This document shows, in pieces, positions 24,321 to 64,000 of a DNA stretch of 64,000 nucleotides; positions within the stretch are counted from its first letter, which is position 1, and every line of letters begins with the position of its first letter. Below the pieces are notes generated by a model that had not been told where the DNA came from, ran no database searches, and was given only the letters and a program-made list of their open reading frames with translations. The translations under genes and the position numbers were made by a program. The DNA is from Squalus acanthias. Its lineage: Eukaryota. The stretch is taken from assembly GCA_030390025.1 (NCBI GenBank), contig CM059431.1, positions 157,978,001-158,042,000 on the forward strand, written 5' to 3'.

Positions 24321-25804
24321 ACATAGAAACATAGAAACATAGAAAATAGGTACAGGAGTAGACCATTCGGTCCTTCGAGCCTGCACCGCCATTCAATGCG
24401 TTCATGGCTGAACATGCTACCTCAGTACCCCATTCCTGCTTTCTCGCCATACCCCTTGATCCCCCTAGTTGTGAGTGTTATATCTAACTCCCTTTTGAAT
24501 ATATTTAGCGAACTGGCCTCAACAACCTTCTGTGGAAGAGAATTCCATAGATTCACCACTCTCTGGGTGAAGAAGTTCCTCCTCAGCTCAGTCCGAAATG
24601 GCTTCCCCTTAATCCTTAGACTGTGACCCCTGGTTCTAGTTTTCCCTACCATTGGGAACATTCTGCCCGCATCTAATTTGTCTAAACCAGTCAGGATTTT
24701 AAATGTCTCTATAAGATTCCCCCTCATTCTTCTGAACTCCAGAGGATACAAGTTCAGTTGACCCAATCTTTCTTGATATGTCAGTCCGGCCATCCCAGGA
24801 ATCAATCTAGTGAACCTTCGCTGCACTCCCTCAATAGCAAGAATGTCCTTCCTTAAGTTAGGAGACCAAAACTGCGCACAATACTCCAGGTGCGGCCTCT
24901 CCAAGGTCCTGTACAACTGCAGCATCACCTCCCTACTCCTGTACTCAAATCCCCTTACTATGAAGGCCATCATTCCGTTTGCTTTCTTGACTGCCTGCTG
25001 CACTTGCATTCCCACCTTCATTGACTGATGTACCATGATGCCCAGGTCTCGTTGCACCTCCCCTTTCCCTAATCTGCCACCATTCAGGTAATAGTCCGCC
25101 TCTCTATTTTTACCACCAAAGTGGATAACCTCACATTTATCCACATTGTACTTCATCTGCCATACATTTGCCCATTCACCCAACCTGTCCAAGTCACTCT
25201 GTAGCCTCCTAGCATCCTCCTCATTGTTCACACTGCCTCCCAATTTAGTGTCATCCGCAAATTTGGAGATATTACATTTAATCCCTTCGTCCAAATCATT
25301 AATATATAATGTAAACAGCTGGGGTCCCAGCACCGAACCCTGCGGTACCCCGCTGGTCACTGCCTGCCATTCTGAAAAGTACCCATTTACTCCTACTCTT
25401 TGTTTCCTGTGTGCCAACCAGTTCTCAATCCACGTCAACACATTACCCCCAATCCCATGTGCTTTAACTTTGCTCACCAATCTCTTGTGTGGAACCTTGT
25501 CGAAGGCCTTCTGAAAGTCCAAATACACCACATCTACTGGTTCCCCCCTGTCCATCCTATTGGAAACATCCTCAAAAAATTCCAGAAGATTTGTCAAGCT
25601 TGATTTCCCTTTCACAAATCCATGCTGACTTGGACCTATCAAGTCGCCACTTTCCAAATGGTCTGTTATGACATCTTTAATAATTGCTTCCATCATTTTA
25701 CCCACAACCGATGTCAGGCTGACCGGTATATAATTCCCTGCTTTCTCCCTCCCTCCTTTTTTAAAAAGAGGGGTTACATTGGCCACCCTCCACTCCATCG
25801 GAAC
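24321..25804 (-). mobile_element. Young 5'-truncated CR1 inserted antisense in the older CR1
   Basis: Open 458-aa RT/C-terminal ORF (24422-25798) and (catagaaa)n tail. Near-identical to 35054-36534. The host reads gagaacagctaac|gtagtac across the insertion. Confidence 0.93.
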
Positions 25805-27193
25805 GTAGTACTATCATTCAAGAAGGGTAGTAGGGATAAACCAGGGAATTACAGGCCAGTGAGCCTAACATCCGTGATAGGGAAATTATTGGAAAACATT
25901 CTGAGGGACAGAATTAGTTTCCACTTGGAGAGGCAAGGATAAATCAAGAATAGTCACCAGGGCTTTGTCAGGGGGAGATCATGTCTAACCAATTTGATTG
26001 AATTTTCCGAGGGGGTGACTAGGTGTGTGAATGAGGGTAGTGCACTTGATGTAGTCTACATGGACTTCAGTAAGGCTTTTGACAAAGTCCCATATGGGAG
26101 TGGTCAAGAATCTAAGATGCCATGGGCGCCACGGTAATTTGGAATATTGGATCCAAAATTGGCTTAGTGGCAGGAGGCAGAGAGTGATGGTCGAAGGTTG
26201 TTTTTGTGACTGGAAGCCTGTGTCCAGTGGTGTACCGCAGGGATCGGTGCTGGGTCCTTTGCTGTTTGTAGTGTACATTAATGATTTAGATATGAATGTA
26301 GCAGGTATGATCAGTAAGTTCGCAGATGACACGGAAATTGGTGGAATGGTTAATAGTGAGGAGGGAAGCCTCAGGCTACAGGACGATATAGTAATGTTGG
26401 TTAGATGGGCAGAACAGTGGCAAATGGAATTTAACCCTGAAAAGTGTTAGGTGATGCATTGTGGGAGGAATAATAAGGCAAGGGATTACACAATGAATGG
26501 AAGGATCCTGGGAAGGACAGAGGAGCTGGGGGACCTTGGTGTGCATTTACATAGATTCCTGAAGGCAGCAGGAAAGTTAGATAAGGTGGTTAAAAAGGCA
26601 TATGGGAATCTTGCCTTAATTAGCCGAGGCATAGAATATAAGAGAAGGGAGGTTATGTTGGAGCTTTACAAAACGCTAGTTAGGCCACAGCTGGAATACT
26701 GTGTGCAGTTCTGGTTGCCACACTATAGGAACGATGCGATTGCATTGGAGAGGGTGCAGAGCAGATTCACCAGGATGTTACCTGGGCTGGAGCTCTTCAG
26801 CTATGAAGAGAGACTGGACAGGCTGGGGTTGTTTTCCTTAGAGCAGAGAAGACTGAGGGGGGACCTGATTGAGGTGTACAAAATTTTGAGGGGCATAGAT
26901 AGGGTAGATAGAAAGGAACGTTGTCCCTTAGTAGAGGGGTCAATAACCAGGGTGCGTAATTTCAAGTTAAGGGGCAGGAGGTTAAGAGGGGATTTGAGGA
27001 AAAACGTTTTCACAAAGAGTGTGATTGGAATCTGGAACTCACTACCTAACAGGGTGGTAGTGACAGGAACCCTCACAACATTCAAGAAGCATTTAGATGA
27101 GCACTTGAAACGCCATAGCAAACAAGGCTACGGACCAAGTGCTGGGAAATGGGATTAAAATAGACAGGGCTTGATGGTCGGCGCGGACAGGAT

Positions 27194-38010: not shown

Positions 38011-38336
38011 GGCTCTCTCGCTATGAAGCTCAACATACCATTTGCCTTCTTAACCGACTGTTGCACATACATGCTTACCTTCAGCGACTGGTGCACATGG
38101 ACTCCCAGATCTCGTTACACTTCCCCTTTTCCCAATCTATTGCGGTTCAGATAATAATCTGTCTTCCTGTTTTTGCCACCAAAGTGGATAACCTCGCATT
38201 TATCCACATTATACTGCATCTGCCATGCATCTGCCCAATCATACAACCTGTTCAAATCATACTGGAGTTTCTCTGCATTCTCCTCAAAGCACACACGCTC
38301 ACCCAGCTTTGTGTCGTCTGCAAACTTAGAGATTTT

Positions 38337-43965: not shown

Positions 43966-44422
43966 AATGATAACAGGAACATCTCAAACGAGTCAGAACC
44001 CAATAGGAGAACTAAATGGCGATATCCGAATAAGTATTCGTTCGTATATATTACAGATTCTTTATTGCTGTGTGAGAATAATGCTAACTTTTGAACTAAT
44101 AGATGAAAATAAGTGCAGAGTCAACCCAGCCACAGTTCGCATTCTTCTCTGATAAACCTCTAGGTGAACACCTTATAAACCCGTTAATTAGGCAAAGTGT
44201 AGAAATGCACAAGATTCCGATTACCTGACAAAGAAAAACCGTGAAAACAGTAGAAGATATTAAAAAGTAAACTGAACAATGCGCTACGCAAACGATGAAC
44301 CGAAGTTAATGCGTCTGGAGCTTTTATAACTGGTTTAGATTGTTTAGATTGTCAATGAATCCGTGAGTAACAACAGCTCAACAGTTGTTCTTTAATTTAC
44401 AGTGATTGACGATATTGCAAGA

Positions 44423-44630
44423 ATGTTCCGACGATACAGTATATTTTTTGTAATACTGCTGGGACTATTAAGAGACGTTTTGCCTGATTCTTCGATAAAG
44501 CAGACACATGATCTCAGAAATGATGACAACCCGCTGGGTAAGGAAAACAATGCGTGTACTTCTCCGGGCATTAATGATGCAGGAAATACAAATAGTGAAG
44601 AAGAGAGTTACATTTCCGATGGAAAAAGAG
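44423..44630 (+). CDS. Leader exon of the CARD-array gene (MFRRYSIFFVILLGLLRDVLPDSS...ISDGKR), hydrophobic N-terminus plus hydrophilic linker
   Basis: Acceptor tttaatttacAG ends at 44402; ATG at 44423 with A at -3; donor AGAG|GTACAT after 44630 is phase 1 and matches the next exon. An alternative phase-1 donor CTGG|GTAAGG follows 44537. Confidence 0.55.
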
Positions 44631-47600
44631 GTACATGCCTCGCACCCTGTTATTCCCTCCCTAAATACCTACGCCTCTACATCTCGGTTAATCACTTAAG
44701 CGTCTGCTTAATTCTCCCTTTTTTGAAAACAATTAATGTAAATCTTCCTGACCCCTTACAATCTCTTTCTTCGGCCAGGATGTGTGTATTCATGCCTCAT
44801 TAAAACTTCCTTGAGGCGCCTTGGAGTACTTTATATCACGTTAATGTTGTTTTTGTTGTTGTTGATGAGGTATTGTCTTTTTTTAGTAGAGCTACCTCTC
44901 ACGACTTTCTCCAAAATGCTCCCCGCCCCATCCTTTTGATGATTTATGCTCGGGCACATTTAATTGTTGAACAGTACTCGCTACAGTCATGTCCAAGCTA
45001 AAGTATTTGTCTTTGTGTGATTATTTTCTATTGATAATGAAAACTATTTCCCAAAACTTTGTTTCCTGAACTCGGTGTATAGATATTCGTAAAGTTTAGT
45101 GTGACTGCCGGTTGTCTTCAAAATATTTCCATTTCACAGTTCCTGTTTCACAATTTAGTCTTCCTTAAAATAAAGAAGGAAAAATGGAAGCACGAATTGA
45201 TTTGCATTTAGTGTTTCATGCTATTAATCTCTGTATGTTATGTATTAGCTCTTCAGGCAAACATGTGAAAGTCACGGCTATGTCTAATTGCTCAACAGCA
45301 TCTGCTGATTCCAAACATTAAATCTAACCTGGAGTCTCAGATCACCGTCAGGAACAATTATTGGTTATTTTTCTGATCATGCCTTTCTATATTAATATTT
45401 GCTGGTACTTTATCTATGCTTTTGTGAGTTTTAGTCTCGATTCCTCAAACGACCTTTGGGCCTAGCCCGTCATGACCTAGAATCTATCTATATCTCTATT
45501 GCTTAAATTCAAATTCACCCATAGATCCGTAAACCACTTGCTCACTAACTTATATTAAATTCTTATCCCAAATTGATCATGTGTGAAATGGTCCTACTGA
45601 TCCTCACCCAAATCTACGGCCCCACCCACCTTATCCCTACAGTCTTCTTGACATCCGCTCTGTTACACAACTCTCCCTCGTTGTGGTCTCTAGTGTATCG
45701 GTTCTTCTGCTCCGCAACATCGGTAATGTGACCTCATTTCGAAACGATAAATCGGAAAAAAATTAACAGTTACTTGGAAAAGAGCTTGATTTATTAAAGA
45801 ATGTCAGCACGGATTTTTCAAAGGCAAATCGTGTTTAACTAACTAGATTTATTTTTTTGATGCGTTAACAGAGATGGTGGGGCGAGGGTGCGGTGAGGCC
45901 AATGTGGTTGACGTGGTGTACATGGACTTCCAAAAGACGTTTGATAAAGTGCCACTTAATAGGCTTGACAGCAAAGTTGAAACCCATGGATTAAAAGGGA
46001 CAGTGGCAGCTTCGATACGAAATTGGCTAAGTGACAATAAACAGATAGTATAGGGGAACGGTTGTCTTTCGAAGTGGAGGAAGGTGTTCCCCTGATGTCC
46101 GTACTAGGATCACTGTTTTTCTGGATATATAGTTATGATTTGGACTTGGGTGTTCCGGGTACAATTTCAAAATTTGTAGCTCACACAATACTTCGTAGTA
46201 TAGTGAACAGTGAGAAGAAAAGTGATAGTCTTCAAGAGGACATAGACAGGCTGGTGGAATGGACGGACACGTGGCAGAAGAAATTTAATGCAGAAACGTG
46301 CGAAATGATATATTTATGGAGGAAGAACGAGGAGAGGCAATATTAACTAAAGGGTACAATTCTAAACGGGCTGCTTGATCAGAGAGACCTTGGGGTATAT
46401 GTGAACAAATCGTTGAAGGTATCACGGCTGTTTGAGAAAGTGGTTAACAAGCTTACGGGAGACTGTGCCTTATAAATAGCGGAATTGAGTAAAAAAACAA
46501 GGAAGTTATAATGAACCTTTATTAAACACTGCCTCGACCTCAACTGGAGTATTGTGCCCAATTCTGGGTATTGCACTTTAGGAAAAATGTGAAGACCTTA
46601 GAGAGAGTGCAGAAAAGATTTACAAGAATGGTTCCAGGAATGAAGGACTTTGTTTAGGTGGATTGACTGGAGAAGCTGTTTGGGTTCTGCTTAGAGCAGA
46701 GAAGGTTGAGTGGACATTTAATTATGGAAATGTACTAGATACAGTCATGTCTAAGCTAAAGCATTTGCCTTTGTGTGATTTTTTTTTCTATTGATAATGA
46801 AATCTATTTTCCAAAAGCTTTGTTTCCAGTACTCGGTGTATTGATATTCGTAAAGTTTAGTGTGACTGCCTGTTGGCTGCACAATATTTCCATTTCTCAG
46901 TTCACGTTTCACAATTTAGTCTTCCTTAAAATAAAGCAGGAAAAATGGAAGCACGAATGAAGTTGCATTTAGTGTTTTATACTATTAATCTCTGTATGCT
47001 ATTTATTAGCTATTCAGGCAAATGTGAAAGTCACGACTATGTCTAATTGCTCCAAAGCATCTGCTGATTCCAAGGCATTAAATCCTACCTGGAGTCTCAG
47101 ATCACCGCCAGGAACAAGTATAGGTTATTTTCTGGACATGCACTTCCATACGAATATTTGCTTGAACGTGATCCATGCTTTTGTGAGCTTTAGACTTGAT
47201 TCCTCACACGACATTTGGGCTTTGCCCGTCATAAACTCCAGCTTTTCTACAGCTCTTTAGCTTCAATTCAAATTCACTCTCAATTCCATAAACCACTTGG
47301 TCACTGACTTACATTCACTTCTTATCCCAAATTGATCATGTGTGAAATGATCCTACTCAACTTACAATAAATGTACAGCCCCAACCACCTTATCCCTACA
47401 GTCTTCTCTCCATCCCCTCTGTTACACACCTCTCCCTCGCGGTGATTTCTAGTGTATCGTTTTTTCTGCTCCGCACTCCAGTTAAAGATATCAATCGCAC
47501 TGACTCTGTTCCTAAGGATCCTCCGCTTTCTACTTCTTACTAACTTTAACCAGCCTCCGAATGTTGCAAGGACTGAGTCATTCCTCCTAACAATACCAAA

Positions 47601-47773
47601 AGGAGACAGCTTTAATTCTTAATACCTCCTCTGTGAGTCGCCACTTGCGGTATCACTGCTTGAAAGGCTTTAAAAAACGCTGTTGCTATATCAGTTGGTG
47701 CAGAGTATTCTTTGTTTTATGGCGGGCTCAGTATTTTAATATGTTCTCATTTACACCTTGACATTATATTCAG

Positions 47774-47934
47774 ATAATAAAACGTTACGGATGCTGAGGA
47801 GCTACACGGATTTGCAGCTGCGGAGAATTATCGAGTGCCACCGTCAGATTCTGGAACATTCAATTCAAGAATTCGTGGAGACTGTTAGTCAGTCGCTTTT
47901 TGATGTAAAACTATTTACTGAAGCAGATCATGAG
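47774..47934 (+). CDS. CARD-like module 1, exon A (DNKTLRMLRSYTDLQLRRIIECHRQILEHSIQEFVETVSQSLFDVKLFTEADHE)
   Basis: ttcAG| ... GAG|GTATGC; 161 bp; phase 1 to 0; open; length and splice sites conserved in three copies. Confidence 0.85.
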
Positions 47935-50900
47935 GTATGCAATATATATGGTGGAATCTCATGGTGTTAAATGAGTCATGAGTCAGAGTTAGATTAATTG
48001 TATTCCGTGCAAACAACGATATAAGCAGTAATCTATAATGACTCTGAAATTGAGTGCGTTTCCAATGAAAACAGCATTTTAAGTGCTCCTCTGAGATATA
48101 TCTCTGGTAAATTAATTTGTTCTTTAATCTTCAATTAATGCATTAAATAATGAGTGAAAAGCATCTCTTGGTTTAACTATGTTCGCTTCATGCAGCGTTC
48201 GAGACCCAACTATCTCTAATTGCTTCTTTAATGGCCATTCCTCATGCGGTCAGAATTGGGGCTAGTCACTGATAATTCAGTGTTCAGCTCCATTTGCAAT
48301 TCCTCCTTTAATGAATTCGTCCATCCCCATATGAAGCTGGACCTGGACAGTATCCAGGTTTGGCCGGTTTTTGTGTCAAGACACATTCTTGTAACTCAAG
48401 TTCCAGGCAATGACCATCTCCACCAACAGAGAGTCACATCATCTCTCCCTGATATTTCATGGAATTAACATCGGCGCATCCGCCACCATCAACATCCTGG
48501 AGGACAGGTCTAAAACCAGCTCTTTGAATTCACTGTGAAACGTGCGGCTGTTAAGGTAATTCCAGTGGCCGCATTTCTGCAGGGAATGGATTAACTCCAG
48601 TTTCTGAAAGCGGAAATAGAGGGCGTCCTAGCAATTGATCAGTTACCCCAAATTACAGGATTGTACGGGCCAAGCCCTGATGAATCGAAATTAATTATTT
48701 AATAAGACATCACTAGCAGAACTGCCATCATGCGTTCTCAGCATAGCCCTAGTGGAAAATCTAGAGAACGATAAAATTTGTAATAGCGACATACTTCTAA
48801 CATTGGATGAAGAAATTAACTGACATTTAAATGCTAAGCTGTCGGAATTAAAGGCCGTGAGTTTCCGTCCATTCTCTATCAAAGGAGCCCTGTTTATTCA
48901 GTGAACCATCTAATTGGTTTTATCCATTGCCGGTGGCTCGAATCTCGAGAAACTTGTAGTGAACGTTTCTAAATCGTTGCTTCGATTTCTCTGCTCCTTT
49001 GCACTTCACAGCATGTCTGCCTCTCTCTGCCTTTATAATACCTTCCCTGCCACAATTTTTACATCGAACTAACACTTTCTTAATTTCTAAACTCACACAA
49101 CCTGCATTATCTCACGTATCACCGAGCTCTCGCAAAATTCATCCGGTCTATGGGATATGCAACCTACCGCCTTGATTCCTGGTCAGCTCAGGTCATTCCC
49201 ATTCTTCGGCTCACCACTCAATGTCGTCACTAATACTGACCCCTCCTGAGTCATCATTCTCTGACGACAAGAATGCTATGATGACACATTACATAAAAAC
49301 AATCTCTGGACTCATCTATAATGTCCACATGTTCGCTTTTCCGAATATTTCCTACCTTTACCTAACACATGTATATACATATCATTCCGAATATAGCTGG
49401 TTAGTTGCCGGCACAGATTGTCTGGGGATATTCTACAAATTATGATGTGGTGACATTAATAGTTTATCTGGCTTAGGTAAGGACAGAATTAGGAGGGAGA
49501 AGGTATTATTAAAAGATACAATTGCAGCACGGGATCTCATGACTGATATAAACAATGCTTCGCCAAATTAAACCATAAGTTTAGGGTTTCAGAATAATAA
49601 AGGAGCGGTTATCATTCATCGAATAGTGGTAAATGGATAGAAGAAGATCAATGGAGAAACATTGAGAAAGTGCAGCAATAAATGTAACATGGTTATTGGC
49701 GACTTTAAATATCCAAAGAATAGAAGTAACATAAGTGCGGGAAAAACTGCATGGTATTTGCAGCCTGTCCGGTTCGTTGTTTATATTGATATGGCTTTAG
49801 GAAAACAAGAAAGGAATCAGTATTGGATCCATTTCTAGAAACGGGGAGGGACTCTTAGGTCATCTAAGGGTAGTGGAACATCCAGGAAAATATGATATCA
49901 TTAGGATTCATATGAAGCGTAAAAGAAAACGGATCAATGAAAGCAATATACATTTTACAGGAATAAATCAAATTTGAACGAAACTAAAATACTAGCCCGA
50001 ATATATTCGCACGTTAATGAGCAGAAAAAGCCGCGTAGAAGCAATGAGAATCGGCCGAATAGGAGAAGATTGCCATAGAAGATACACAAAGTACACGAGA
50101 ATAAAAGAGTCGCAGCATAAACGAGAATTGCTTGGACCTGCATAGAAAATAAGCCAAAATTGAAATTTTAAAATAAATATAACTTAGAAGGGCTGATTAA
50201 TAAAACAAATCAAGGAAACATGGATAATATAAAATAGAAGCGAAAACATTCAAAATTCATGAAACGAATGAGTGGCAGGTGTCAGAATTAGAGACAATTA
50301 TCATATTTCATAAAATCCTCAAAAACAATTAATCAAAGAACAGAGCTGTTTAGAGATGAAAACTGCAATGTTCATAAAGAGCATGAAGAAGTGACTAATA
50401 AGCTGTTGCTGCTGTTGCGATGATTGAAGGTGATATTTGGAATGAATGAAAGGCTCATTGAAGTAAATAGAATTAAACTCGGATGCGGCGTAAAGAGGGC
50501 CACCTATTGGCTTTCAGCCCCTTTCATACTACTGAACAACAGAAAAATCACACACATTGTTATGTTTTTCAATTTCTGCAATTTGAATTTCTGAAAGCAC
50601 GTTGTGAGCTTCCCAAAATATTACTGTTACTATCAACCATTAATGCTTGATTTCATCGAATCCTATTCCTGCAAAACTAACTTTCCCCCTTTTATTCAGC
50701 ACATTATCCTTTTCCATCTATTAGCTGAGAATTTAGAGTTTCCCTGAAAGACTCAACGATGCTCCTCTCTGTCTCTGCAACACTCCGTGATCTCTGTGTT
50801 CATCCAATTCTGGGCATTTGCTCTTCTCCGATTTTCTTCGCCTCACCATTGGCAGCAGAGCCTTCAGATGTCTCGGCTCGAAGCTCTGAAATTCCTCAGC

Positions 50901-51072
50901 TGATCATCTCCTTTAAGAAGCTCCTTCAATCTTAACCCTTGACCAAGCTTCTGGTCATCTGATTGTGAGATTTTCTATTCATTCATCTCATAATGAGAGG
51001 GAGAAAAATAAAATACGTTTTTATCTGGTTATTGAGTTACTTGGCTCAATATGAATGACATTTTTTTTTTAG

Positions 51073-51271
51073 AAAATCAAACATCTCGCTGAAAGTCAGC
51101 GCAAATACGACGCTTCCAGACACATTTTCGATATCGTGCTGGAAAAGGGAGCTCGGGGAAGAAGAACAATCTGGAACATATTTCTTCAACTGCAGAACGA
51201 CGAAGCCTATCTGAAGGAGATAATTTCAGAGATACAGAACAGAGATACATGGTTAGAAAATAATCTGGAAG
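51073..51271 (+). CDS. CARD-like module 1, exon B (KIKHLAESQRKYDASRHIFDIVLEKGARGRRTIWNIFLQLQNDEAYLKEIISEIQNRDTWLENNLE)
   Basis: Poly-T AG| ... GAAG|GTATGT; 199 bp; phase 0 to 1; CARD-like A.R..FD.VLEKG motif. Not listed in the ORF track. Confidence 0.85.
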
Positions 51272-54134
51272 GTATGTAGTGCCCAATTATAACTTGCAAA
51301 AGATCGTGCTTAATGTTAGAGTAAAAAGGTTCTTTATTTATGGCGAGGACATTATTTTAAGTTTGGGTGTGAGGATGACATTCTACATGGGCGGGTAAAC
51401 AAAACAGGCGGATTTGCATTTGCCGACCTTTATAAAACACGCCTCGTATTCAATTCTATTCAAGGTTATTCGGGCGCAGTGTGCAAAAGGAGATCGATGA
51501 ATACCGCCTGCAGAACAACTTCGACAAAAACGGGCGTAATCGCCTCTGAACATAGAAATTTAAGAGGGGACGTGAAAAGGAAAATAAAGGGGGCAAAGAT
51601 GAAGCATGAGAATAGATTGGCAACTAAAATAAATATGAATCCAAAAGATTCTATAGGCATATAAATAACAAACAGTTAGTAAGAGAAGGGTTGGGCCCGA
51701 CTAGGGACCAAAAAGAGACCTACGCACGCAGCCAGAGGGCATGGCTCAGATACTAAATGTGTACTTTGCATCTAACTTTCCAAGGAAGAAAATGCTGTAA
51801 AGGTCAAAGTGAAAGAGGAGGTAGTCGCAATTACTGGATGGGATATAAATTGAGAAAGAGGAGGTAGTAGAAAGGCTTGCTGACCGGCTGGTATGAATCC
51901 TTGGATGCTGAGGGAGGTAAGGGTGAAAATTGAGCAGGTACTGGCCATAATCTTCCAATCCTACTTTGAAACGGTGTAGGTGCCAGTGGACTGGAAAATT
52001 TGAAAAGTTGCACATTTGTTCAAAGGAACGTGTACGTTTAAATCGAGCAACTACAAACCAGTCAGCTAACCTCTTTAATGATTAAGCTTTTAGAAGCGAT
52101 AAATCTTTTCAAAATTAACAGCTACTTCGACAAGTGTGAATTGATTATGGAAAATCAACACTGATTTTAGAAAAGCAAATCCTGTTTAACTAAATTGATT
52201 CATTTTTCTGATGCGGTAACAGAGAAACGTGGGGGCTGGATGGGTTGGGCTGGTGAGGGGATTGCGGTTTTCGTCGTGTAAATGGTTTTCCAAAAGCCGT
52301 TTGGTAAATTGCCGCTTAATAGGCTTGACAGCAAAGTTGAAACTCATGGAATAAAAGGGAAAGTGTCAGCATCGATACCAAATTGGCTTAATTACAGGAA
52401 ACAGATAGTATTGGGGAACGGTTGTCTTTCGGACTGGAGGAAGGTCTTCCCCTTGTGTCGGTACAAGGGCCACTGAGTTTCTGGATATATAGTTAAGATT
52501 TGGACTTGGGTGTTCCGGACACAAGTTAAAAAATTTGAAGATCACATAATACTTGGAAGCTATAGTGAAAAGTGAAAAGAAAAGTGATAGACTTTAATAG
52601 GACATAGACTGGCCGGTGGAATAGGCGGACACGTGGCAGAAACAAATTAACGCAGAAACGTGCGAAATGATACATTTAGGCAGGAAGAACGAGGAGAGGC
52701 AATATAAAATAAAGGTAACAATTCTAAAAGGGCTGCATGATCAGAGAGACCTGAGGGTATATTTGCACAAATCGTTGAAGCTATCAGGGCTGTTTGAGAA
52801 AGAGGCTAAAAAGCTTATGGGAGACTGGGCTTCATAAATAGAGAAATAGAGGACAAAAGCAAGGTCGTTATAAAGAATATTTATTAAACACTGCCTCGAT
52901 CTGAACTGGTGCATTTTGTCCAATTCTGGGACCGCACTTTAGAAAGAATATGAAGGCGTTAGAGAGAGTGCAGAAAAGATTTACAAGAATGGTTCCAGGG
53001 ATGATGGACTTTGGTTATTTGCTCTCCTGGAGAAGCTGGTTGCGTTCTCCTTAGAGCAGAGAAGGTTGAGAGGAGATTTAATTGTCGAACTGTACTAGCT
53101 ACAGTCATGTCTAAGCTAAATTATGTCTCTTTGTGCTATTATTTTCGATTGATAATAAAAACTATTTCCCCAAAGATAGATTCCTGTACTCGGTGTATTG
53201 ATATCCGTAAAGTTTAGGGTGACTGCCTGTTGGCTTCACAATATTTCCATTTCTCAGTTCCTGTTTCACAATTTAGTCTTCCTTGGAATAATGAAGGAAA
53301 AATTAGAAGAACAAATGAAGTTATGTTTAATTTTTCATACTATTAATCTCTGTATGTTATTTATTAGCTCTTCAGACAAAAATGTGAAAGGCACGACTAT
53401 GTCTAATTGTTCAACAGCATCTGTTGATTCCAAGGCATTAAATCTAACCTGGAGTCTCAGATCATCGTCAGGAACAATTATAAGTTAATATTCTGGACAT
53501 GCACTTCCATATGAATATTTCCTGGTACTTTATCCATGCTGTTGTGAGCTTCAGATTCGTTTCCTCAAACGGTCTTTGGGCCTAGGCCGTCATTAACTCC
53601 AGCTTGTCCAAAGCTCTATTGCTTCAATTCAAATTCACCCTCAGTTCCCTAAACCAATTAGTCACTGACTTACGTTCACTTCTTATCCCAAGTAGATCAT
53701 GTGTGAAATGGTCATACACATCTTCAACTAAATCTACGGCCGCACCCAGCTTATCCCTGCGACTTCGTAACATCCCCTCTGTTACACACCTCTCCCTCGC
53801 TGTGGTCTACAGTGTATCGGTTCTTCTGCTCTGCCCTCCAGGCAAAGATGTCAATCCCACTGACTCCGTTCCTAAGGGACCTCCTCTTTCTACTTCTTCC
53901 TTACTTGAACCAGCCTTCGAATTTTGCAAGGACTGGGTCTTTCTTCCTAACTATACCAAAAAGATATAACATTAAAACCTAATTGCTCCGCTGTGAGGCT
54001 CCACTGACGGTTTCACTGCCTGAAAGGCTTTTATAAAACGCTGTTGCTATATCATTTGGTCCAGAGTATTGATTGTTTTATAGCGGGCACAGTATTTTAA
54101 TCTGTTCTCATTTACATCTTGACATTATATTCAG

Positions 54135-54295
54135 ATACTAAAACTTTACTGATGCTGAAGAACTACACGGATATCCAGCTGCGGAGAATTATCGAGTGCT
54201 ACCGTCAGAGACTAGAACATTCAATTGAAGAATTCGTGGAGTCTGTCAGTCAGAATCTTTTTGAAGTAAAAGTGTTTACTGAAACAGATCATGAG
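54135..54295 (+). CDS. CARD-like module 2, exon A (DTKTLLMLKNYTDIQLRRIIECYRQRLEHSIEEFVESVSQNLFEVKVFTETDHE)
   Basis: ttcAG| ... GAG|GTATGC; 161 bp; open. Confidence 0.85.
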
Positions 54296-56122
54296 GTATG
54301 CAATAAATATGGTGAAATTTCATAGTGTTAAATGAGTCATGAGTCAGAGTTAGATTATCTTTATTCCGTACAACCCAGCGATGTAAGCAGTACTCAATAG
54401 TGACATTGAGATTGAGTCCGCTGTCAATGAAACAACATTTTAAGTGCTCCTCTGAGATATATATCTGGTAAGTTTATTTGTTCTTGAATCTTCAATTAAT
54501 GCATTAAATAATGAGAAAACAGCATCTCATGGTTGAACTATGTTTGCTTCATGGCAGCGTCCGAGATCCAAATATCGTTAAGTGCTTCTTCAATGGCCAT
54601 CCTTCATGTGGTCAGCATTGGGGCTAGTCACTGATGATTGCACAGTGTTCAGCTCCATTTGCAATTCCCCCAATAATGAAGTAGTCGATCCCCGTATGAA
54701 GCTAGACTTGGACAACATCCAGGTTTCTCCGGATAAGTTACTAGTAACATTTGCGCAACTCAAGTTCCAGGGAATGACCATCTCCGCAAAGAGATAGTCA
54801 CTTCATCTCTCCCTGATATTTAATGGAATTACCATTGGCGAATCGTTCAGCATCAACATCCTGGAGTACAAGAGAAAAAACAGCTCTGTGAATTCACTGT
54901 GAAACGCACAGCTGTTAAGGTAATTCCAGTGTCCACATTTCTGCAGTGGATGGATTTACTCCAGTTTCTGAAAGTGGACATACAGGGCGTCCTATCAATT
55001 GATCAATTACCCTAAATTAATGGATTGCAAGGGCCAAGCCCAGACGAATCGAAATTAATATTTTAAGAAGAGATCACTAGAAGCACTACCATCATGCGTC
55101 CTCAGCATAGCCCCAGTGGAAAACATGGAGCAAGTTGAAACTTCCAATAGCGACATACTTCTAATATCACATGATAAATTTACTGATGTTTAAAAGCTAA
55201 GCTGTCGGAATTAAACACCATGAGTTTCCGTCCATTCTCTATCAAAGGAACCCTGTTTTTCCAGTGAGCCATCTGATTGGCTTTAGCCATGCCGGTGGTG
55301 CGGATGTCTAGAAATTTGCAGTGAACGTATCTAAATCTTTGCTTCGATTTCTCTGCTCCTTTGCAATTCACAGCATGGCTGCCTCTCTCTGCCTTTCTAA
55401 TACCTTCCCTGCCACAATTTTTACATCGAACTAACCACTTTCTTATTTTTAATCTCAAACAATCTGCATTATCTCATGAATCACCAAGGAGTCGCAACAT
55501 TCTTCCAGTGTATGGGATATGCAACCTACTGCCTTGACTCCTGGTTAGCTCAGGTCATACCCCTTTTTGGACTCACTGCTCAGCGTTGTCACTAATACTG
55601 GCCTCTCCTCAGTCTTCATCCTCTGACGTAAAGACTGCCATAATGACCAATTCCATTAAAAAAAAATCTCTGGACTCATCTATAATGATCACATGCTCGG
55701 TTTTCCGAATATCTCCTACAATTACCTAACACATGTACATACAAAGCATTCCGAATATAGCTGGTTAGTTGAAGGCACAGATTGTCAGGGGATATGCTAT
55801 AAATTATGATGTACAGACATTAATAGTTTATCTGGCTTAGGTAAGGACAGGATTAGGAGGGAGGGAGAAGGTAGTATTAAAACATAAAATTACAGCACGG
55901 GAACTCATGGCCGATGTAAACAATGCTTCGCCAAATTAACCCATAAATTTGAGGTTTCAAACTAATAAAGGATATATTATTATGCATCGAATAGTGGGAA
56001 ATGGATAGAGGAACAGTTATAGAGAAAATGTGAGAAAGTGCAGCAATAACAGTAACATGGTTATTGGTTATTTTAATATCCAAAGGATAGAAGTAAAATA
56101 AGTGTTGGAAAACGGCATGTTA

Positions 56123-58528
56123 CATAGATACATAGATACATAGACAATAGGAGCAGGAGTAGGCCATCCGGCCCTTCGAGCCTGCTCCGCCATTTAATGA
56201 GATCATGGCTGATCCTCCAATTCAGTATCCCGTCACCGCCTTCTCTCCGTAACCCTTAACCCCTTTTGCCTGTAGAAATATATCTAATTCCCTCTTAAAT
56301 ATATTTAATGAGCTGGCGTACACTGCCCTCTGTGGCAATGAGTTCCACAGGTTCACCACCCTCTGAGTGAAGAAATTCCCCCTCATTTCTGTCCTAAATG
56401 GTTTAGCCCTTATCCTTAAATTATGTCCTCATGTCTGTTCTCACCCGCCAAGGGAAACATTCCTTCTGCATCTAGTCTGTCTAGACCTGTCAGAATTTTA
56501 TACACTTCTATGAGGTCCCCTCTCAATCTTCTAAACTCCAGTGTGTACATCCCTAAACTACATAGTCTCTCCTCATAGGTCAATCCCGCCATTCCTGGTA
56601 TCAGCCTGGTGAATCGCCGCTGCACCCCCTCCATGGCAAGAACATCTTTCCTCAGATGAGGCGACCAAAACTGTACACAGTACTCGAGGTGTGGTCTCAC
56701 CAGTGCCCTGTACAGCTGCAGCAAGGTATCCCTGTTCCTGTATTCCAACCCTTTTGCTATGAAGGCCAGCATACCGTTTGCCTTCTTGACCGCCTGTTGC
56801 ACCTGCATGCTCGCCTTCAGTGACTGGTGTACAAGAACACCCAGGTCTCTCTGTACTTCCCCCTCTCCCAATTTATTGCCATTTAAATAATAATTTGCCC
56901 TCCCGTTCCTGCACCCAAGGTGGATAACTTCGCACTTGTCCACATTATAGTGCATCTGCCATTTATCCACCCAATCACCCAGTCTGTCCAAATCGCTCTG
57001 GAGCTTCCTGGTCTCCCCCTCTGAGCCCACCCCCCCCGCCCCCCCCCTCCTAGTTTAGTGTCGTCTGCAAATTTGGAAATGCTGCATCCGACTCCCTGAT
57101 CCAGGTCATTAATGTAAATTGTGAACAGCTGGGGACCCAGGACAGATCCCTGTGGTACCCCACTTGTTACTGCCTGCCATTCAGAAAATGAGCCGTTTAT
57201 TCCAACTCTCTGTTTTCTATCTGACAGCCAGTTCTCTATCCACGTCAATACTTTCCCCTTTATCCCATGAGCTTCAATTTTCCATGCTAATCTTTTATGT
57301 GGGACCTTATCGAAGGCCTTTTGGAAGTCCAGGTACACCACATCTACTGGCTCTCCCCCATCTATTTTACCAGTTACTCCCTCAAAAAATTCCAATAGAT
57401 TAGTCAAGCACGATTTACCCTTTGTAAATCCATGTTGACTCTGTCCTATCCTGTCCCCATTTGCTAAGTGCTCCGCTATTTCATCCTTAATGATGGACTC
57501 CAGCATTTTGCCCACAACTGATGTAAGGCTTACAGGTCTGTAATTACCTGCTTTTTCCCTACCCCCCTTTTTGAATAGTGGGGTAACGTTAGCTACCCTC
57601 CAATCCATGGGCACTGTTCCCGAGTCTAATGAATTCTGAAAAATCATACTTAGTGGATCCGCTATCTCTAGGGCCACCTCCTTCAGTACCCTAGGATGCA
57701 TGTTATCAGGCCCTGGGGATTTGTCCACCTTCAATCCCTTTAACTTCCTTAACACCATATCCTTAGAGATATTGATTTGCGTCAGTTCCTCCTTTGCCAA
57801 TGTCCCTATTTTTCCCGATATCCCAGGGAGGTTTTTTGTGTCTTCCTTCGTAAAGACTGACCCAAAGTATGCATTTAGTTGGTCTGCCATTTCCTTATTT
57901 CCCGTTATATATTCCCCCGTATCTGACTGCAATGGACCAACTTTGGTTTTCACCAGTCTTTTCCTCTTGATATACTTATGAAAGCTTTTGGAGTTAGTTT
58001 TTATATTTTCCGCCAGCTTGCTTTCGTAAGCTATTTTGCCCCTCTTGATTAAGCCCTTTGTCCTCCTTTGCTCTATCTTAAACTGTTCCCAATCTTCCGC
58101 TCTGGCGCTTTTTTTGGCTATTTTATACGCCCTATCTTTGGATTTTATGCTGCCTCTAATTTCCCCTGTTATCCACGGTTGAGTCACCTTTTTAGATTTA
58201 CTTTTATGCCAGATTGGTATAAACAATTTTTGCAATTTTGTCATTCTATCTTTAAATGCTTGCCATTGTTTATCTACCTCCAGTCCTCCCAGGAACGTTG
58301 TCCAATCAGACCTACTCAGTTCCCGTCTAATTGCATCATAATTCCCCTTGTTTAAATTCAGGACCTTAGTCTCTGAGTCAATTTCTTCGCTCTCCATTTC
58401 GAGTGAGAAATCGATCATGTTATGATCGCTCTGACCCAAGGGTCCCCGTACAACAAGATTACTAATTAGTCCCTTCTCATTGCACAGTACCCAGTCCAAT
58501 ATAGCCTGTTCCCGAGTTGGTTCCTCGA
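56123..58528 (-). mobile_element. 5'-truncated CR1 inserted in the A-B intron of unit 2, with 7-bp TSD catgtta
   Basis: ORFs 56883-58499 and 56416-57030, frameshifted at a C/G run near 57030-57050. TSD at 56116-56122 and 58529-58535. Unit 1 has the empty site (gcatggtatttgcagcc, ~49749). Confidence 0.92.
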
Positions 58529-59848
58529 CATGTTATTCGCAGCCTGTCCGTTACGTTGTTTAGATTGATATGGTTTTATGAAAAAAAGGAAGGAATGATT
58601 ATTGGATCCATTTCAAGAAACGGGGAGGGCATTGTAGGTGATGTACGGGTAGTGGAAAATCCAGGAAAATATATCATCGGGATTCATATGAATCGTAAAA
58701 GCTAACGGGACAGTCAAAGCAATATTCATTTTACAGGAATAAAATTAATTTTAACGAAACTAAAATACTAGAAATTATTGGCACGTTAATGATCAGAAAA
58801 AGCAGCGGCGAAGCAATACGAAACTGGCAAATAATAGAAGATTGCCATAGCTGACACACAAATTACACGAGAATAAAAGAGTCGCAGCACAGACGAGAAC
58901 AGCTTGGACGAGCATAGAAAATCATCCAAAAATGAGATTTTAAAATAATTAAAGGGTAGTAGGGCTGATTATGTAAAACAAATCAAGGAAACATGGAGAA
59001 TATGAAATAGACGCAAAAACGTTCAGAATTTATGAAAGGAATGTGTGGCAAGTACCACAATTGGAGACAATTATCATATTTCATAAACTTCTCAAAAGTA
59101 CTTAAACAAAGGACAGAGCTGTCTGGAGATGAAAATTACATGGTTCATATAGAGCATGAAGAAGTTACTGATAAGCTTTTGCTACTGTTTCGATGAATGA
59201 AGGTGATACTTGGAATGAATGAAAGGCTCATTGAAGTACATAGCATGAAAATCGGACGCGGCATAAAGTGGGCCACTGATCCCCTTTCAGCGCCTTTCGT
59301 GCAACTGGCCAACAAAAAATTTCTCACACATTTTTATATTTTTCAATTTCTGCAATTTGAGTTTCTGAAACCACGTTGTGAGCTTATGGAAAATTAGTGT
59401 TACTATCAACCAATAATGCTTGATTTTGGTTGAATCCTAATGCTGCAAACTTAACTTTTCCCATTCTCTTCAGCACTTTATCCTTTTCCTTCTATTAGCT
59501 GAGAATTTAGAATTGCCCTGGATGGCTCAACGATGCTCCTCTCTATCTCTGCAACTCTCCCTGATCACTGTGCTCATCCGATTCTGGGCATTTGCTCATC
59601 CCCGATTTTCTTCACCTCACAATTGGCAGCAGATCCTTCAGCAGTCGTGGCCCTAAGCTCTGAAATTCCTTCGCTAATCCTTTCCTGTAAGAAGCTCCTT
59701 AAATCTTACCACATTGACCAAGCTTCTGCTCACCCGATTGTGAGATTTTCTATTCATTCATTTCATAAAGAGAGGGAGAAATAGAAAAGACGTTTAAATA
59801 TCTGATATTATATTATTTGGCTCAATATGATTGCAATTTTTTTTTTAG

Positions 59849-60047
59849 AAAATCAGATCTCTCGCTGAAAGTCAGCGCAGAAACGACGCTTCCAGATACA
59901 TTTTCAATACCGTGCTGGAAAAGGGAGCTCGGGGAAAAAGGAGAATGTGGAACATATTTCTTCAGCTTCAGAACACCAAACCCCAGCTGAAAGCAATACT
60001 TTCAGAGATACCGAACAATGATACATGGTTAGAAAATAATCTGGAAG
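59849..60047 (+). CDS. CARD-like module 2, exon B (KIRSLAESQRRNDASRYIFNTVLEKGARGKRRMWNIFLQLQNTKPQLKAILSEIPNNDTWLENNLE)
   Basis: Poly-T AG| ... GAAG|GTATGT; 199 bp; open. Confidence 0.85.
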
Positions 60048-62894
60048 GTATGTGGTGTCCAAATCTAACTTGCAAAAGACCGTGTTTACTGACAGAGTAA
60101 CAACGTTTATTATTTATGGCGAGGACCTTATTTTAAGTTATTTTGTGAGGACGAAATTCTACATGTGCGGGTGAACACAACAGGCGGATTCGCATATGTC
60201 GAACACTTTAAAGCACGCCCGGTATTCAGTTTTATTCAAGGTTATTCGTGCGCAGTGTACAATAGGCGATCTATGCAATACCGCCTGACGTATAGCTTCG
60301 CCGAAAACGGGCGATAACGCATTTGAACATAGAAATTTAAGAGGGGAAGTGAAAAAGTAAATAAATATGGCAAAGAGAGAATTTGAGAATAGACTGGCAG
60401 CTAACAAAGAAAGGAATCCAAAAGTCTTATATAGGCATACAAATAATAAAGAGGTAGTAAGAGAAGGGTTGGGGCCGACGAGTGAACAAAAAGGAGATCT
60501 ACGTATACAGGCAGAAGGCATGGCTGAGTTAATAAATGAGCACATTGCATCTGACTTTACCAAGGAAGAAGATGCTGTCAACGTTACAGAGAAAGAGGAG
60601 GTAGTTGCAATACTGAATGGGATAAACAATGATAAAGAGCTGGTACTACAAATGCCGGCTGACTGGATGGGAGAATTCCTCGGATGCTGAGGGAGGTAAT
60701 GGTAAATATGCGAAGTTACTGGCCATAATCTTCCTTTCATCCTTCGATACGGGGAAGTTGCCAGGGGACTGCAGCATTGCAAATGTTACATCCTTTTTCA
60801 AAAGTGGGTGTAAATATAAACGAAGCATCTACAGAACAGTCATTTTAACCACGGCAAAGGGGAAGCCTTTAGAAGTGACAAATCGGGACAAAATTAACAG
60901 TCGCTTCGACAAGTGTGGATTGTTTAATGAAAGTCAACACGGATTTTTCAAATGTAAATCGTGTGAAACTAATGTTATTGATTTTTTTGATGCGGTAACA
61001 TAGACGGTGGGGTGGTGAGGGCCATGCGGTTGACGTGGGGTACAAGGAATTCCAAAATACTTTTCATAAAGGGCCACTTAATAGGCTTGACAGCAAAGTT
61101 GAAACCAATGGAATAAAAGGGACAGTGGCAGTATCGATGCGAAATTCGCTCAGTGGCAGGAAACAGATAGTATTGGGGAACGGTTGTTTTTCGGACAGGA
61201 GGAAGGTGTTCCCCTGGGGGACGGTACTAGGACCACTGCTTTCCTGGATATATAGTTATGATGTGGACTTGGGTGTACCGGGCACAATTTCAAAATTTGC
61301 AGCTCGCACAATACTTGGAAGTATAGTGAACAGTGAGAAGGAAAGTGATAGACTTCAAGAGGACATAGAAAGGCTGTTGGAATGGGCGGACACGTGGCAG
61401 AATAAATTTAACGCAGAAATGTGCGAAATTATATATTTTTCTGTAGGAAGAACGAGGAGAGGCAATATAAAATAAAGGGTACAATTCTAAATGGAATGCA
61501 TCAGCAGAGAGCGGGGGTACATGTGCACAAATCGTTGAAGGTATCAGATCTGATTGAAGAAGTGGTTAAAAAGCATACGGGAAACTGAGGTTCATAACTA
61601 GAGGAATAGAGTACAAAAGCAGGGAAGTTATAATGATCCTTAATTAAACACTGCCTCGACCTCAACTGGAATATTGTGTCCAATTCTGGGCACTGCACTT
61701 TAGGGAGAATGTGAAGTCCTTAGAGAGAGTGCAGAAAAGATTTAAAATAATTATTCCAGGGATGAGGGACTTTGGTTATGTGGATTGACTGGGCAAGCTG
61801 GTTGTTTTCTCTTTAGTGCCTGATGTTTGAGAGGAGATTTAATTGTGGAACTTTACTAGCTACAATCATGTCTATGCTAAAATATTTGTCTTTGTGTGAT
61901 TATTTTCGATTGATAATTAAATCTATTTTCCCTAAATTTTATTTCCTGTACTCAGTGTACTGATATCCGTAAAGATTAGTGTGACTACCTGTTGGCCTCA
62001 CGATATTTCCATTTCTCAGTTCCTGTTTCACAATTTAGTCATCCTTAAAATAAAGAAGGAAAAATGGAAGCACGAATGCAGTTGCATTTAATGTTTCATA
62101 CTATGAAACTCTGTATGTTATTTATTAGCTCTTCAGGCAAACATGTGAAAGTCACGAGTATGTCAAATTGCTCAACAGCATCAGCTGATTCCAAGAATTT
62201 AAATCAAACCTGCAGTCTCAGATCACCGTCAGGAACAACTATAGGTTATATTTCTGGACATGCACTTCCATGTGAATATATGCTTGTACTTTATCCATGC
62301 TTTTGTGAGCTTTAGACGAGATTCCTCAAACAATTTTTGAGCCTAGCTCATCATAAACTGTAGATTGTCCACAGCTCTATTGCTTCAATTCAAATTCACC
62401 CTCAGTTTTGTAAACCGCTTGATCACTGACTTACATTCACTTCTAATCCCAAATTGATCCTGTGTGAAATGGTCCTACTCATCTTCAACTACATCTACGG
62501 TCCCACCCACCTCATCCCTACAGTCTTCTTAACATCCCCTCTGTTGCACACCTCTCCCTCCCTGTGGTCTCCAGTGTATCGGTTCTTCTGCTCCGCACTC
62601 CAGGCAAATAAGTCAATCCCACTGTCTCCGTTCCTAAGGAACCCCTCTTTCTACTTCTTACTTACTTGAACCAGCCTCCGAATTTTGAAAGGACTTGATC
62701 GTTCCTCCTAACTATACCAAAAAGAGACAACATTCATTCTTAATTCCACCTCTGTGAGGCGCCACTGGCGGTATGACTGCTTGAAAAGCTTTAATTAACG
62801 CTGTTGCTATATCAGTTGGTCCAGAGTATTCATTGTTTTTTAGCGGGCTAAGTATTTTAATCTGTTCTCATTGACACCTTGACGTTAAATTCAG

Positions 62895-63055
62895 ATACTA
62901 AAACATTACTGATGCTGAAGAGCTACACGGATATCCAGCTGCGGAGAATTATGAAGCACCACCGTCAGATTCTAGAACATTCAATTGAAGAATTCGTGGA
63001 GACTGTTAGTCAGACGCTTTTTGATGTAAAAGTATTTACTGAAACTGATTATGAG
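62895..63055 (+). CDS. CARD-like module 3, exon A (DTKTLLMLKSYTDIQLRRIMKHHRQILEHSIEEFVETVSQTLFDVKVFTETDYE)
   Basis: ttcAG| ... GAG|GTATGC; 161 bp; open. The partner exon B is expected beyond the window end. Confidence 0.85.
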
Positions 63056-64000
63056 GTATGCAAAAAATAGGGTGGAATTTCATTGTCTTAATTGAGTCAT
63101 GAGTCAGAGTTAGATTAACTCTATTCCGTGAAACGCAACTATATAAGCATTACTCAATAGTGACTCTGAAATTGAGTCCTTTGCCAATGAAATGAACATT
63201 TTAAGTGCTCCTCTGAGATATATCTCTGGTAAGTTAAATTGTTCCTTAATCTTGAATTATTGCATTAAATAATGAGAGAACAGCATCTCATGGTTCAACT
63301 ATGTTTGCTTCCTGGCAGCGTCCTAGGCCCAAATATCGTTAAGTGCTTCTTCAATGGCCATCCCTCAAGATATCAGAATTGGGGCTAGTCACTGATGATT
63401 GCCCTGTGTTCAGCTCCATTTGCAATTCCCCCAACAATGAAGTAGTACTTCCTCAATTGAAGCTAGACATGGAGAACATACAGGTTTGCCAGGAAAAGTG
63501 ACAATTAAAATTCGCGCAACTCAAGTTCCAGGGAATGACTATCTCCACAAAGAGAGAGTCACATCATCTCTCCCTGATATTTAATGGAATTACCATCGGC
63601 GAATCGGCCACCATCAACATCCTGGAGGACAGGACTAAAACCAGCTCTGTGAATTCACTGTGAAACATGCGGCTGTTAAGGTAATTCCAAAGGCCGCATT
63701 TTTGCAGGGAATGGATTTAGTCCAGTTTCTGAAAGGGCGTCCTATCAAATGATCAATTGCCCCAAATTACAGGATTGCACGGGCCAAACCCAGACGAATC
63801 GAAATTAATATTTTAGTAAGAGACCACTAGCAGAACTACCATCATGCGTCCTCAGCATAGCCCCAGTGGAAAACCTGGAGATAGATAAAACTTGTAATAG
63901 CGACATACTTCTAATATCACATGAAGAAATTAAATGACGTTTAAAAGCTAAGCTGCCGCAATTAAAGTCCATGAATTTCCGTCCATTCTCTATCAAAGGA

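Follow-up and report, generated by a model that had tools for sequence, protein, structure and literature searches.

Exon organization of the array

The stretch analyzed here (the window, 64,000 nucleotides [nt]) comes from the Squalus acanthias assembly GCA_030390025.1 (3.7 Gb), contig CM059431.1 (referred to as C7), positions 157978001-158042000. Its 3' part carries the beginning of a predicted spliced gene in which a leader exon is followed by tandem copies of a two-exon unit, B and A, coding for a 120-amino-acid (aa) module that resembles the CARD-type death fold. The features of the window that make up or lie within this array are as follows.

44423..44630, plus strand: leader exon with ATG, 69 codons plus 1 base in an open frame, GT donor
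44958..47637, plus strand: part of the leader-to-B1 intron, 84-85% identical to the A-to-B introns of the array by self-BLAST
47774..47934, plus strand: B exon of module 1, 161 nt, phase 1 to 0, AG/GT borders
51073..51271, plus strand: A exon of module 1, 199 nt, phase 0 to 1, AG/GT borders
54135..54295, plus strand: B exon of module 2, AG/GT borders
56886..58532, minus strand: reverse transcriptase open reading frame of a long interspersed nuclear element (LINE) in the intron between B2 and A2 (Pfam RVT_1, E 1.6e-26)
59849..60047, plus strand: A exon of module 2, AG/GT borders
62895..63055, plus strand: B exon of module 3, AG/GT borders; A3 and modules 4 to 9 lie past the window end, up to C7:158089491

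Six exons at these coordinates had been proposed in a preliminary description made from the letters of the window, and they were recovered as described: each is preceded by AG (the first begins with ATG) and followed by GT, the lengths are 208, 161, 199, 161, 199, and 161 nt with phases 1, 0, 1, 0, 1, and 0, and the join gives a single open frame of 363 codons, a leader of 69 aa and 2.45 modules of 120 aa. The description had counted at least 2.5 repeats, which stands as a lower bound, but the full array contains nine modules, not about 2.5. The number was obtained by counting units downstream, as the description had advised. The window and the 160 kb following it (together a 224-kb extended sequence) were searched by tblastn with the exon translations, and nine B and nine A exons were found, alternating strictly on the plus strand from window position 47774 to extended position 111491 (C7:158089491). 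The 18 exons are all open, their acceptor and donor sites are conserved, and the 19-exon join has 1149 codons and no stop, corresponding to the leader plus 9 × 120 aa. The whole array occupies 67 kb (C7:158022423-158089491, plus strand), and the six exons of the window form its 5' third.

One cassette, B with 161 nt and A with 199 nt, measures 360 nt and is phase-symmetric (1 to 0 to 1), so that any number or subset of cassettes stays in frame. The units are genomic tandem duplicates, with exons and introns 83-85% identical from unit to unit, and the exon copies are paralogous, with 87-100% nucleotide identity. From its similarity to the A-to-B introns, the leader-to-B1 intron marks the 5' edge of the duplicated unit. 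The inserted LINE reverse transcriptase frame accounts for the greater length of the B2-A2 intron (5.5 kb versus about 3.1 kb).

The exon pattern is not due to chance, because the exons are paralogous copies and the module spans the junctions in annotated shark proteins. The spliced module aligned end to end with the proteins referred to as P0008 (Cetorhinus), P0001, and P0004 (Mustelus asterias XP_078087540.1, annotated as NLRP3-like) at 45-49% identity (E 1e-21 to 3e-25), and in three other sharks annotated proteins run without a break across both the B-to-A and the A-to-next-B junctions, these proteins being automatic gene models, not transcripts. We infer that the splice junctions of the array are used.

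CARD identity of the module

The module had been assigned to the CARD pattern in the preliminary description, which also recommended profile and structure comparisons. Both were made, the structure comparison on relatives, and agreed with the assignment, in the form of a CARD profile match by hhalign and of AlphaFold2 models of two shark relatives for which structure searches were topped by CARDs. In the profile comparison, 96 modules (the nine of this array and 87 from database proteins) matched 30 Pfam-verified teleost CARDs with 96.0% probability (E 4.2e-9), with helices 2-5 aligned. A profile built from 28 exon-A translations matched 94 proteins among 1.84 billion representative proteins; those that were named (20) or Pfam-scanned (42) include NACHT-LRR receptors (NLRs) of sharks and rays and teleost proteins with 2-8 Pfam CARDs. 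The Pfam CARD cut-off (PF00619, 23.9 bits) was exceeded by the relative P0003 (30.3 bits), and the relatives P0002 (23.4 bits) and P0008 (22.9 bits) lie slightly under it.

The AlphaFold2 model of Mustelus P0010, based on a 64-row alignment, reached a predicted local distance difference test (pLDDT) score of 95-98 over residues 30-130 and showed an extra N-terminal helix followed by H1a/H1b (36-45/47-56), H2 (58-67), H3 (73-84), H4 (88-102), H5 (104-117), and a long H6 (122-149). Its best Foldseek matches in the PDB were almost all CARDs (ARC with a TM score of 0.82, CARD8 with 0.81, and caspase-1 with 0.78, with NOD1 and ICEBERG [1dgn] also present), the E values being weak (0.14 or higher) owing to the small size of the domain. 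In Cetorhinus P0008, module 2 was modeled at pLDDT 91-97 from an alignment in which 28 of 31 rows were exon translations of the S. acanthias genome (18 of them from this array) placed on module 2, to which they are 47-53% identical. Compared with 48,161 chains, this module retrieved CARD structures in 34 of the top 35 places (Z 12.0-7.9), the sole exception being a de novo design at rank 9, with death domains and death effector domains below the CARDs (Z 7.8 or less). The six-helix bundle with a divided H1a/H1b is a feature of the models of the relatives P0010 and P0008.

The B exon aligns to about residues 145-200 of P0008 and encodes the extra helix α0, H1a/H1b, H2, and the start of H3; the A exon encodes CARD helices H3-H6 and the linker. 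A search for a family member whose CARD is encoded by a single exon found none; at all 14 loci examined the domain is split, with the A part in a separate exon. The profile matches and the models of the relatives support a divergent CARD as the identity of the module.

Relatives in sharks and rays

The relatives had been described as N-terminal domains of chondrichthyan NACHT-LRR proteins, which the exon-A profile matches and Pfam bore out; the further statement that the domain is present there as a single copy was wrong, since shark and ray database proteins hold 1-4 copies. Matches include Scyliorhinus torazame GCB66031.1 (CARD domain-containing protein in UniRef), M. asterias XP_078087540.1, Cetorhinus maximus XP_078390056.1, and models from Pristis, Hemitrygon, Hypanus, and Mobula, and many bear NACHT, NOD2_WH, NLRC4_HD2, and LRR domains. 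P0008 is a CARD-only model with a leader, two modules, and a C-terminal hydrophobic helix. The largest number of modules in one protein is four (P0001) among the 82 with a module match; the long arrays therefore appear unannotated, and shark annotations, in which at most four modules per protein were seen, probably under-call these genes.

In the introns of the array, a conserved element with the translation LRPHP.YPY.L lies about 400 nt upstream of the B exons (e.g., window 45602-45646 and 53734-53757). The tail of the S. torazame model GCB66031.1 matches this element, which suggests that the model runs into an intron, and P0001 is probably a faulty model, because its C terminus matches a repeated intronic element, i.e., reads into the intron. 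Neither the N-terminal nor the C-terminal part of P0008, nor the N terminus of P0004, had a credible tblastn match in the 224-kb region. In a word-limited protein homology search, exon A had no scored match and residues 130-500 of P0004 matched P0004 itself only. On the basis of the sequence matches, the family is chondrichthyan.

Sister arrays and their NACHT exons

In the S. acanthias genome, of the 433 candidates for exon A at least 150 were scored as matches, and 147 of these 150 lack a stop; exon B gave 121 matches, 113 of them without a stop. Nearly all lie on C7 at 153.7-159.2 Mb, where at least 111 A and at least 116 B exons are distributed over 5.5 Mb in strictly alternating arrays. 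The following runs were read from the match tables and from one 2.5-kb locus sequence.

C7:154573331-154710490, plus strand: 17 modules, 34/34 exons open
C7:153719776-153796380, plus strand: 12.5 modules, 24/25 exons open
C7:158835169-158902242, minus strand: 9 modules, BABA run
This array, plus strand: 9 modules, BABA run
C7:155454232-155512750, plus strand: 8 modules, 16/16 exons open
Other C7 runs, both strands: 6.5, 6.5, 5, and 5 modules, BABA runs
Many single B-A pairs on C7, both strands: 1 module

At least 10 further runs of four or more modules on C7 alternate B and A likewise, and the array in question follows the subfamily pattern, leader-(BA)9 on a single strand with phases 1/0. Paired matches in the arrays at 153.72-153.80 and 154.63-154.71 Mb have identical E values and a constant offset, which suggests that these two arrays are segmental duplicates. 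NACHT exons were placed by a search with the Mustelus NLR (47-51% identity), and three of them follow long arrays.

C7:154712648-154714372: NACHT behind the 17-module array, 614-aa open frame without a stop, 2 kb past the 17th A exon
C7:153798536-153800260: NACHT behind the 12.5-module array, intact, 2 kb downstream
C7:155517705-155519429: NACHT behind the 8-module array, intact, 4.8 kb downstream

NACHT exons of the same type also follow many single B-A pairs. In a 2.5-kb piece of one sister locus, AG/GT borders flank the last A exon, which ends in phase 1, and the candidate acceptor of the NACHT exon keeps the frame and is phase-compatible with the donor of this last A exon. The predicted plan of the subfamily is leader-(CARD)n-NACHT-LRR, where n ranges from 1 to 17 in this genome. 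Because the 8-, 12.5-, and 17-module arrays end about 2-5 kb before intact NACHT exons, the array at the window is best read as an amplified NLR effector region. The genome also holds a second NLR family, dispersed and with at least 693 NACHT candidates, whose CARD-like exon is more distant; the A part of this exon is 33-41% identical and is separate there as well.

The lengths of the arrays bear on a reading in which they serve as cassette reservoirs, each mRNA taking one or a few modules; it is compatible with either functional reading of the array. The phase symmetry of the 360-nt cassette would permit it, shark proteins hold four modules at most though genomic arrays reach 17, and one array with an intact NACHT has a TAA in an A exon that would need skipping. 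RefSeq isoforms of a pipefish poly-CARD gene differ by exactly one 88-aa CARD, being otherwise identical in 926 of 927 aligned residues. However, no mechanism enforcing exclusivity was seen, though no search was aimed at one, and the short database models may reflect the limits of gene predictors on repeats. We regard the reservoir as conceivable but doubtful.

The broken NACHT-LRR of this locus

No intact NACHT exon follows the array on its own strand within 112 kb. The only NACHT in this interval on that strand is at C7:158125966-158127560 (plus strand, extended 147966-149560), 36 kb past the last module, and has at least five in-frame stops, spans three reading frames, and shows a scrambled Walker-B region. 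Two LRR-like exons, 52-67% identical to P0004, come after it, one of them with a stop. Judged by these lesions, the same-strand NACHT-LRR is a pseudogene, so that the locus may now be CARD-only or dying. The earlier proposal of an NLR with an amplified effector region therefore holds for the architecture, as seen at the sister loci, and needs this qualification for the locus itself. No intact domain was found on the same strand within 112 kb downstream, and neither was a terminal exon with which a COP-like gene of CARDs only would end.

An inverted NACHT-LRR copy is present at extended 122.5-126.5 kb (C7:158100495-158104526, minus strand). It is 94.4% identical over 4.2 kb to C7:158125966-158129894 (plus strand), with one stop in common, and because both copies carry this stop it predates the inverted duplication. 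Sequence resembling the A-to-B intron runs about 1.8 kb past A9 and recurs 1.4 kb upstream of the broken NACHT, which fits a once-ordinary last intron swollen to 36 kb by the inverted duplication and LINEs.

A neighboring NLR lies on the minus strand, with an intact 587-aa NACHT-WH-HD2 exon at C7:158162209-158163969 (phase-1 acceptor tttttaag|AT) and two divergent A-like exons 11 and 16 kb upstream of the NACHT, the locus extending to C7:158179940. In one of these A-like exons, the aligned part is not immediately followed by a GT donor.

Open frames and selection

The state of the NACHT-LRR leaves two readings of the present array. One is a functional stand-alone poly-CARD gene, which lost the NACHT-LRR and kept the array as a CARD-only scaffold, decoy, or filament cap; the other is a young pseudogene remnant, a gene that died with its NACHT and whose CARD exons have not yet been disabled or were recently duplicated. 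They differ in what they predict for stops and indels. On the tree of the nine modules 118 substitutions were counted, and as 4.6% of the possible substitutions make stops, 5.4 stops are expected and none was seen (P 0.004). The 360 exon columns contain no indel, compared with 40 gap blocks, 34 of them not multiples of three, in 1673 columns of four 400-nt intron flanks; 4.5-8.6 indels are expected in the exons (P about 0.0002-0.01). Mean identity is 91.2% in the exons versus 68-87% in the flanks.

These values speak for the stand-alone gene and against the remnant, as does the contrast between a leader and 18 CARD exons that are open and a neighboring NACHT with at least five stops and frameshifts. 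The NACHT moreover died before some of the module duplications, because its pseudogene copies are 5.6% diverged with a shared stop and modules 5 and 6 differ by 0.3% and modules 7 and 9 by 2.5%. Family-wide, the 147 of 150 A and 113 of 121 B matches that are open, with dS up to 0.34 between arrays, also fit a remnant poorly. CARD-only models in other sharks (P0008 and P0001) provide a parallel for a stand-alone gene, although P0001 ends in intron-derived sequence. Further against a stand-alone gene, neither a terminal exon nor a poly(A) site was found after A9, where AATAAA-like hexamers were uninformative.

A remnant is favored by a partner NACHT-LRR that is dead and was displaced by 36 kb through the inverted duplication and LINEs, and by stop-bearing exons in other NACHT-less C7 arrays (B at 158334202 and 158368293; also 159212329 and 158580551). 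The substitution pattern points the same way and detracts from a stand-alone gene. The ratio of nonsynonymous to synonymous substitution rates (dN/dS) is 0.94 over the 36 pairs of the nine modules and 1.31 for the A exons alone, and positions conserved in the family are not significantly avoided (13/35 versus 33/71 positions variable, Fisher p 0.41; Spearman rho 0.22, p 0.03, for replacements versus family conservation). Between arrays, dN/dS is 0.57-0.78 in comparisons with this array and 1.1-2.3 among the others. We read this as retention of open frames combined with free or adaptive change of the protein surface, a pattern also seen in other immune gene families. Taken with the evidence on both sides, a functional stand-alone gene is a real possibility to be held tentatively, and a pseudogene remnant is rather unlikely.

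The leader exon

At 44423 the leader has the first in-frame ATG downstream of a TAA, with A at position -3; a possible acceptor lies 5' of the leader at 44401-44402. The encoded N terminus is hydrophobic, with a mean Kyte-Doolittle value of 2.19 for residues 6-20 and a stretch of about 12-15 residues. Six paralogues of the leader exon (47-86% aa identity) are present in the genome, four of them upstream of B-A units and several at 3-10 kb; contig C2044 carries leader, B, A, and NACHT exons in this order.

In the Mustelus model P0004, a transmembrane segment is predicted after the leader and would hold the CARDs in the cytosol, and Cetorhinus P0008 has its hydrophobic helix at the C terminus. 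Membrane attachment of the CARD proteins of this subfamily is a possibility. A short hydrophobic N-terminal segment is common to the leader (window 44423-44490), P0008, and P0004, i.e., to three species. The leader-B1 intron was scanned for a transmembrane-coding exon, and candidates there were rejected as T-rich, simple-sequence stretches.

Interpretation and proposed mechanism

The 19-exon, 67-kb array is probably the amplified N-terminal effector region of a chondrichthyan NLR, of which this copy could still encode a NACHT-less protein of a leader and up to nine CARDs. Several observations weigh against this interpretation. Transcription and every splice junction of the locus are inferred from sequence, and the copy number of the tandem array hinges on a correct assembly. 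Single exons of the window, which are half-domains, gave sub-threshold Pfam matches only (CARD in one of the six exons, B2 at 54135..54295, E 0.016, 15.6 bits), and in a search of PDB sequences with the exon-A profile no CARD was found, the best match being an unrelated chain (E 0.12). With the dN/dS values and the weak site bias given above, the copies look nearly unconstrained at the amino-acid level, and some of the counted substitutions may be older than the loss of the NACHT, so that the P value overstates the strength of the test of frame retention. The leader resembles a signal peptide, which would place the CARDs in the wrong compartment, and no transmembrane exon was found at this locus. 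A splice into the pseudogene NACHT exon would meet a stop after about 33 codons and might trigger nonsense-mediated decay.

CARDs signal by nucleated helical polymerization, and the tandem CARDs of RIG-I and MDA5 seed MAVS. Valency sets the CARD threshold, and known sensors bear one or two CARDs and gain valency by oligomerizing. Under the interpretation as an NLR effector region, each cassette would code for a single divergent CARD that has an additional N-terminal helix, together with a short linker. In the intact sisters, oligomerization of the NACHT would gather many CARDs into a high-valency seed for an adaptor or caspase CARD filament; with many CARDs per chain, the seeding valency would be reached with fewer protomers, and inclusion of fewer cassettes would tune it. 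A NACHT-less chain of nine CARDs could act as a constitutive multivalent CARD platform that seeds, caps, decoys, or sequesters filaments.

A broader proposal joins the phase-symmetric cassettes, the arrays of up to 17 modules, and a dN/dS at or above 1 in frames that are yet open: variable inclusion of cassettes would yield diversified platforms of tunable valency, and the window locus would be a NACHT-less nine-CARD seed, cap, or decoy. We consider it distinctly unlikely. If true, somatic-splicing diversity would reside at the effector end of an innate receptor and not at its sensor end. With 8-17 CARDs available in one gene or by splice choice, the family would be a natural experiment on CARD number versus nucleation, and it would also show effector diversification under host-pathogen conflict and the origin of CARD-only regulators from receptor genes.

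Surrounding sequence

Retroelement debris makes up most of the 44 kb upstream of the array. A 558-aa open frame at window 1815-3488 (plus strand) has no Pfam match at E 0.001; by eye it shows a YIDD-type reverse transcriptase motif and a GIY-YIG-like 'YIGET' near its end and is probably a Penelope-like retroelement. An intact 964-aa LINE ORF2 with endonuclease and reverse transcriptase domains is located at window 35158-38049 (minus strand), and further reverse transcriptase or endonuclease fragments at 6632-7180, 12242-12790, and 24425-25810. Downstream, at C7:158148352-158151163 (minus strand), overlapping long frames match GETHR-type pentapeptide repeats and probably represent a simple-sequence tandem repeat.

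Comparison with known systems

P0004, itself an automatic gene model, is alike in its hydrophobic N terminus, its tandem CARD-like modules of about 120 aa, and its NACHT-WH-HD2-LRR part. Identity is 44-46% between its modules and module 1 of this array, 50-54% between its NACHT region and the two broken copies here, and 50-51% between that region and the intact NACHTs behind the 8- to 17-module arrays. It differs in having three near-identical modules, compared with nine here and up to 17 in the sisters, an intact NACHT, and the transmembrane segment.

Duplicated N-terminal repeats in a lineage-specific, massively expanded fish NLR family are also known from the zebrafish NLR-B30.2 genes, for which Howe et al. 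(2016, PMC4852459) describe N-terminal peptide repeats, located upstream of the NACHT exon, as 'extensively duplicated'. As presented there, the zebrafish repeat is a peptide motif unique to those NLRs and not a death fold, whereas a death-fold domain encoded by two exons is repeated here. The whale-shark genome paper (PMC8455134) describes, in its available part, an expanded NLR family related to NLRPs, and that part does not mention repeated N-terminal CARDs. No description of arrays of more than two CARDs in fish NLRs was found in the full-text literature searched, most subscription journals being outside its coverage.

Among teleosts, poly-CARD models carry 6-8 CARDs in series and match the exon-A profile with E 1.7e-23 to 6.5e-4 (Arctogadus CAL8349490.1 with eight CARDs and Death, Entelurus XP_061898864.1 with seven CARDs and FIIND-UPA, and Dunckerocampus LOC129189636), and the pipefish isoforms share the alternative inclusion of one CARD cassette. 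Unlike the array, they have canonical Pfam CARDs with a period of 88-91 aa, a Death or FIIND-UPA domain (NLRP1/CARD8-like), and no NACHT, and they are of independent origin, with hhalign identity of only 18%.

Human CARD16/COP, CARD17/INCA, and CARD18/ICEBERG are single CARDs derived from caspase-1 that regulate CARD assemblies. They are alike in that CARD exons were duplicated from a parent without its catalytic or sensor part; they differ in having one CARD each and in their origin from caspase-1. NOD2, RIG-I, and MDA5 likewise have more than one CARD in series at the N terminus of an oligomerizing sensor, and the CARD structures of RIG-I, MDA5, and NOD1 were among the structural matches of P0008 module 2 (Z 10.2-11.2). 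Their CARDs are two in number, ancient, diverged, and structurally coupled, whereas the S. acanthias cassettes are recent and near-identical (87-99.7% nucleotide identity).

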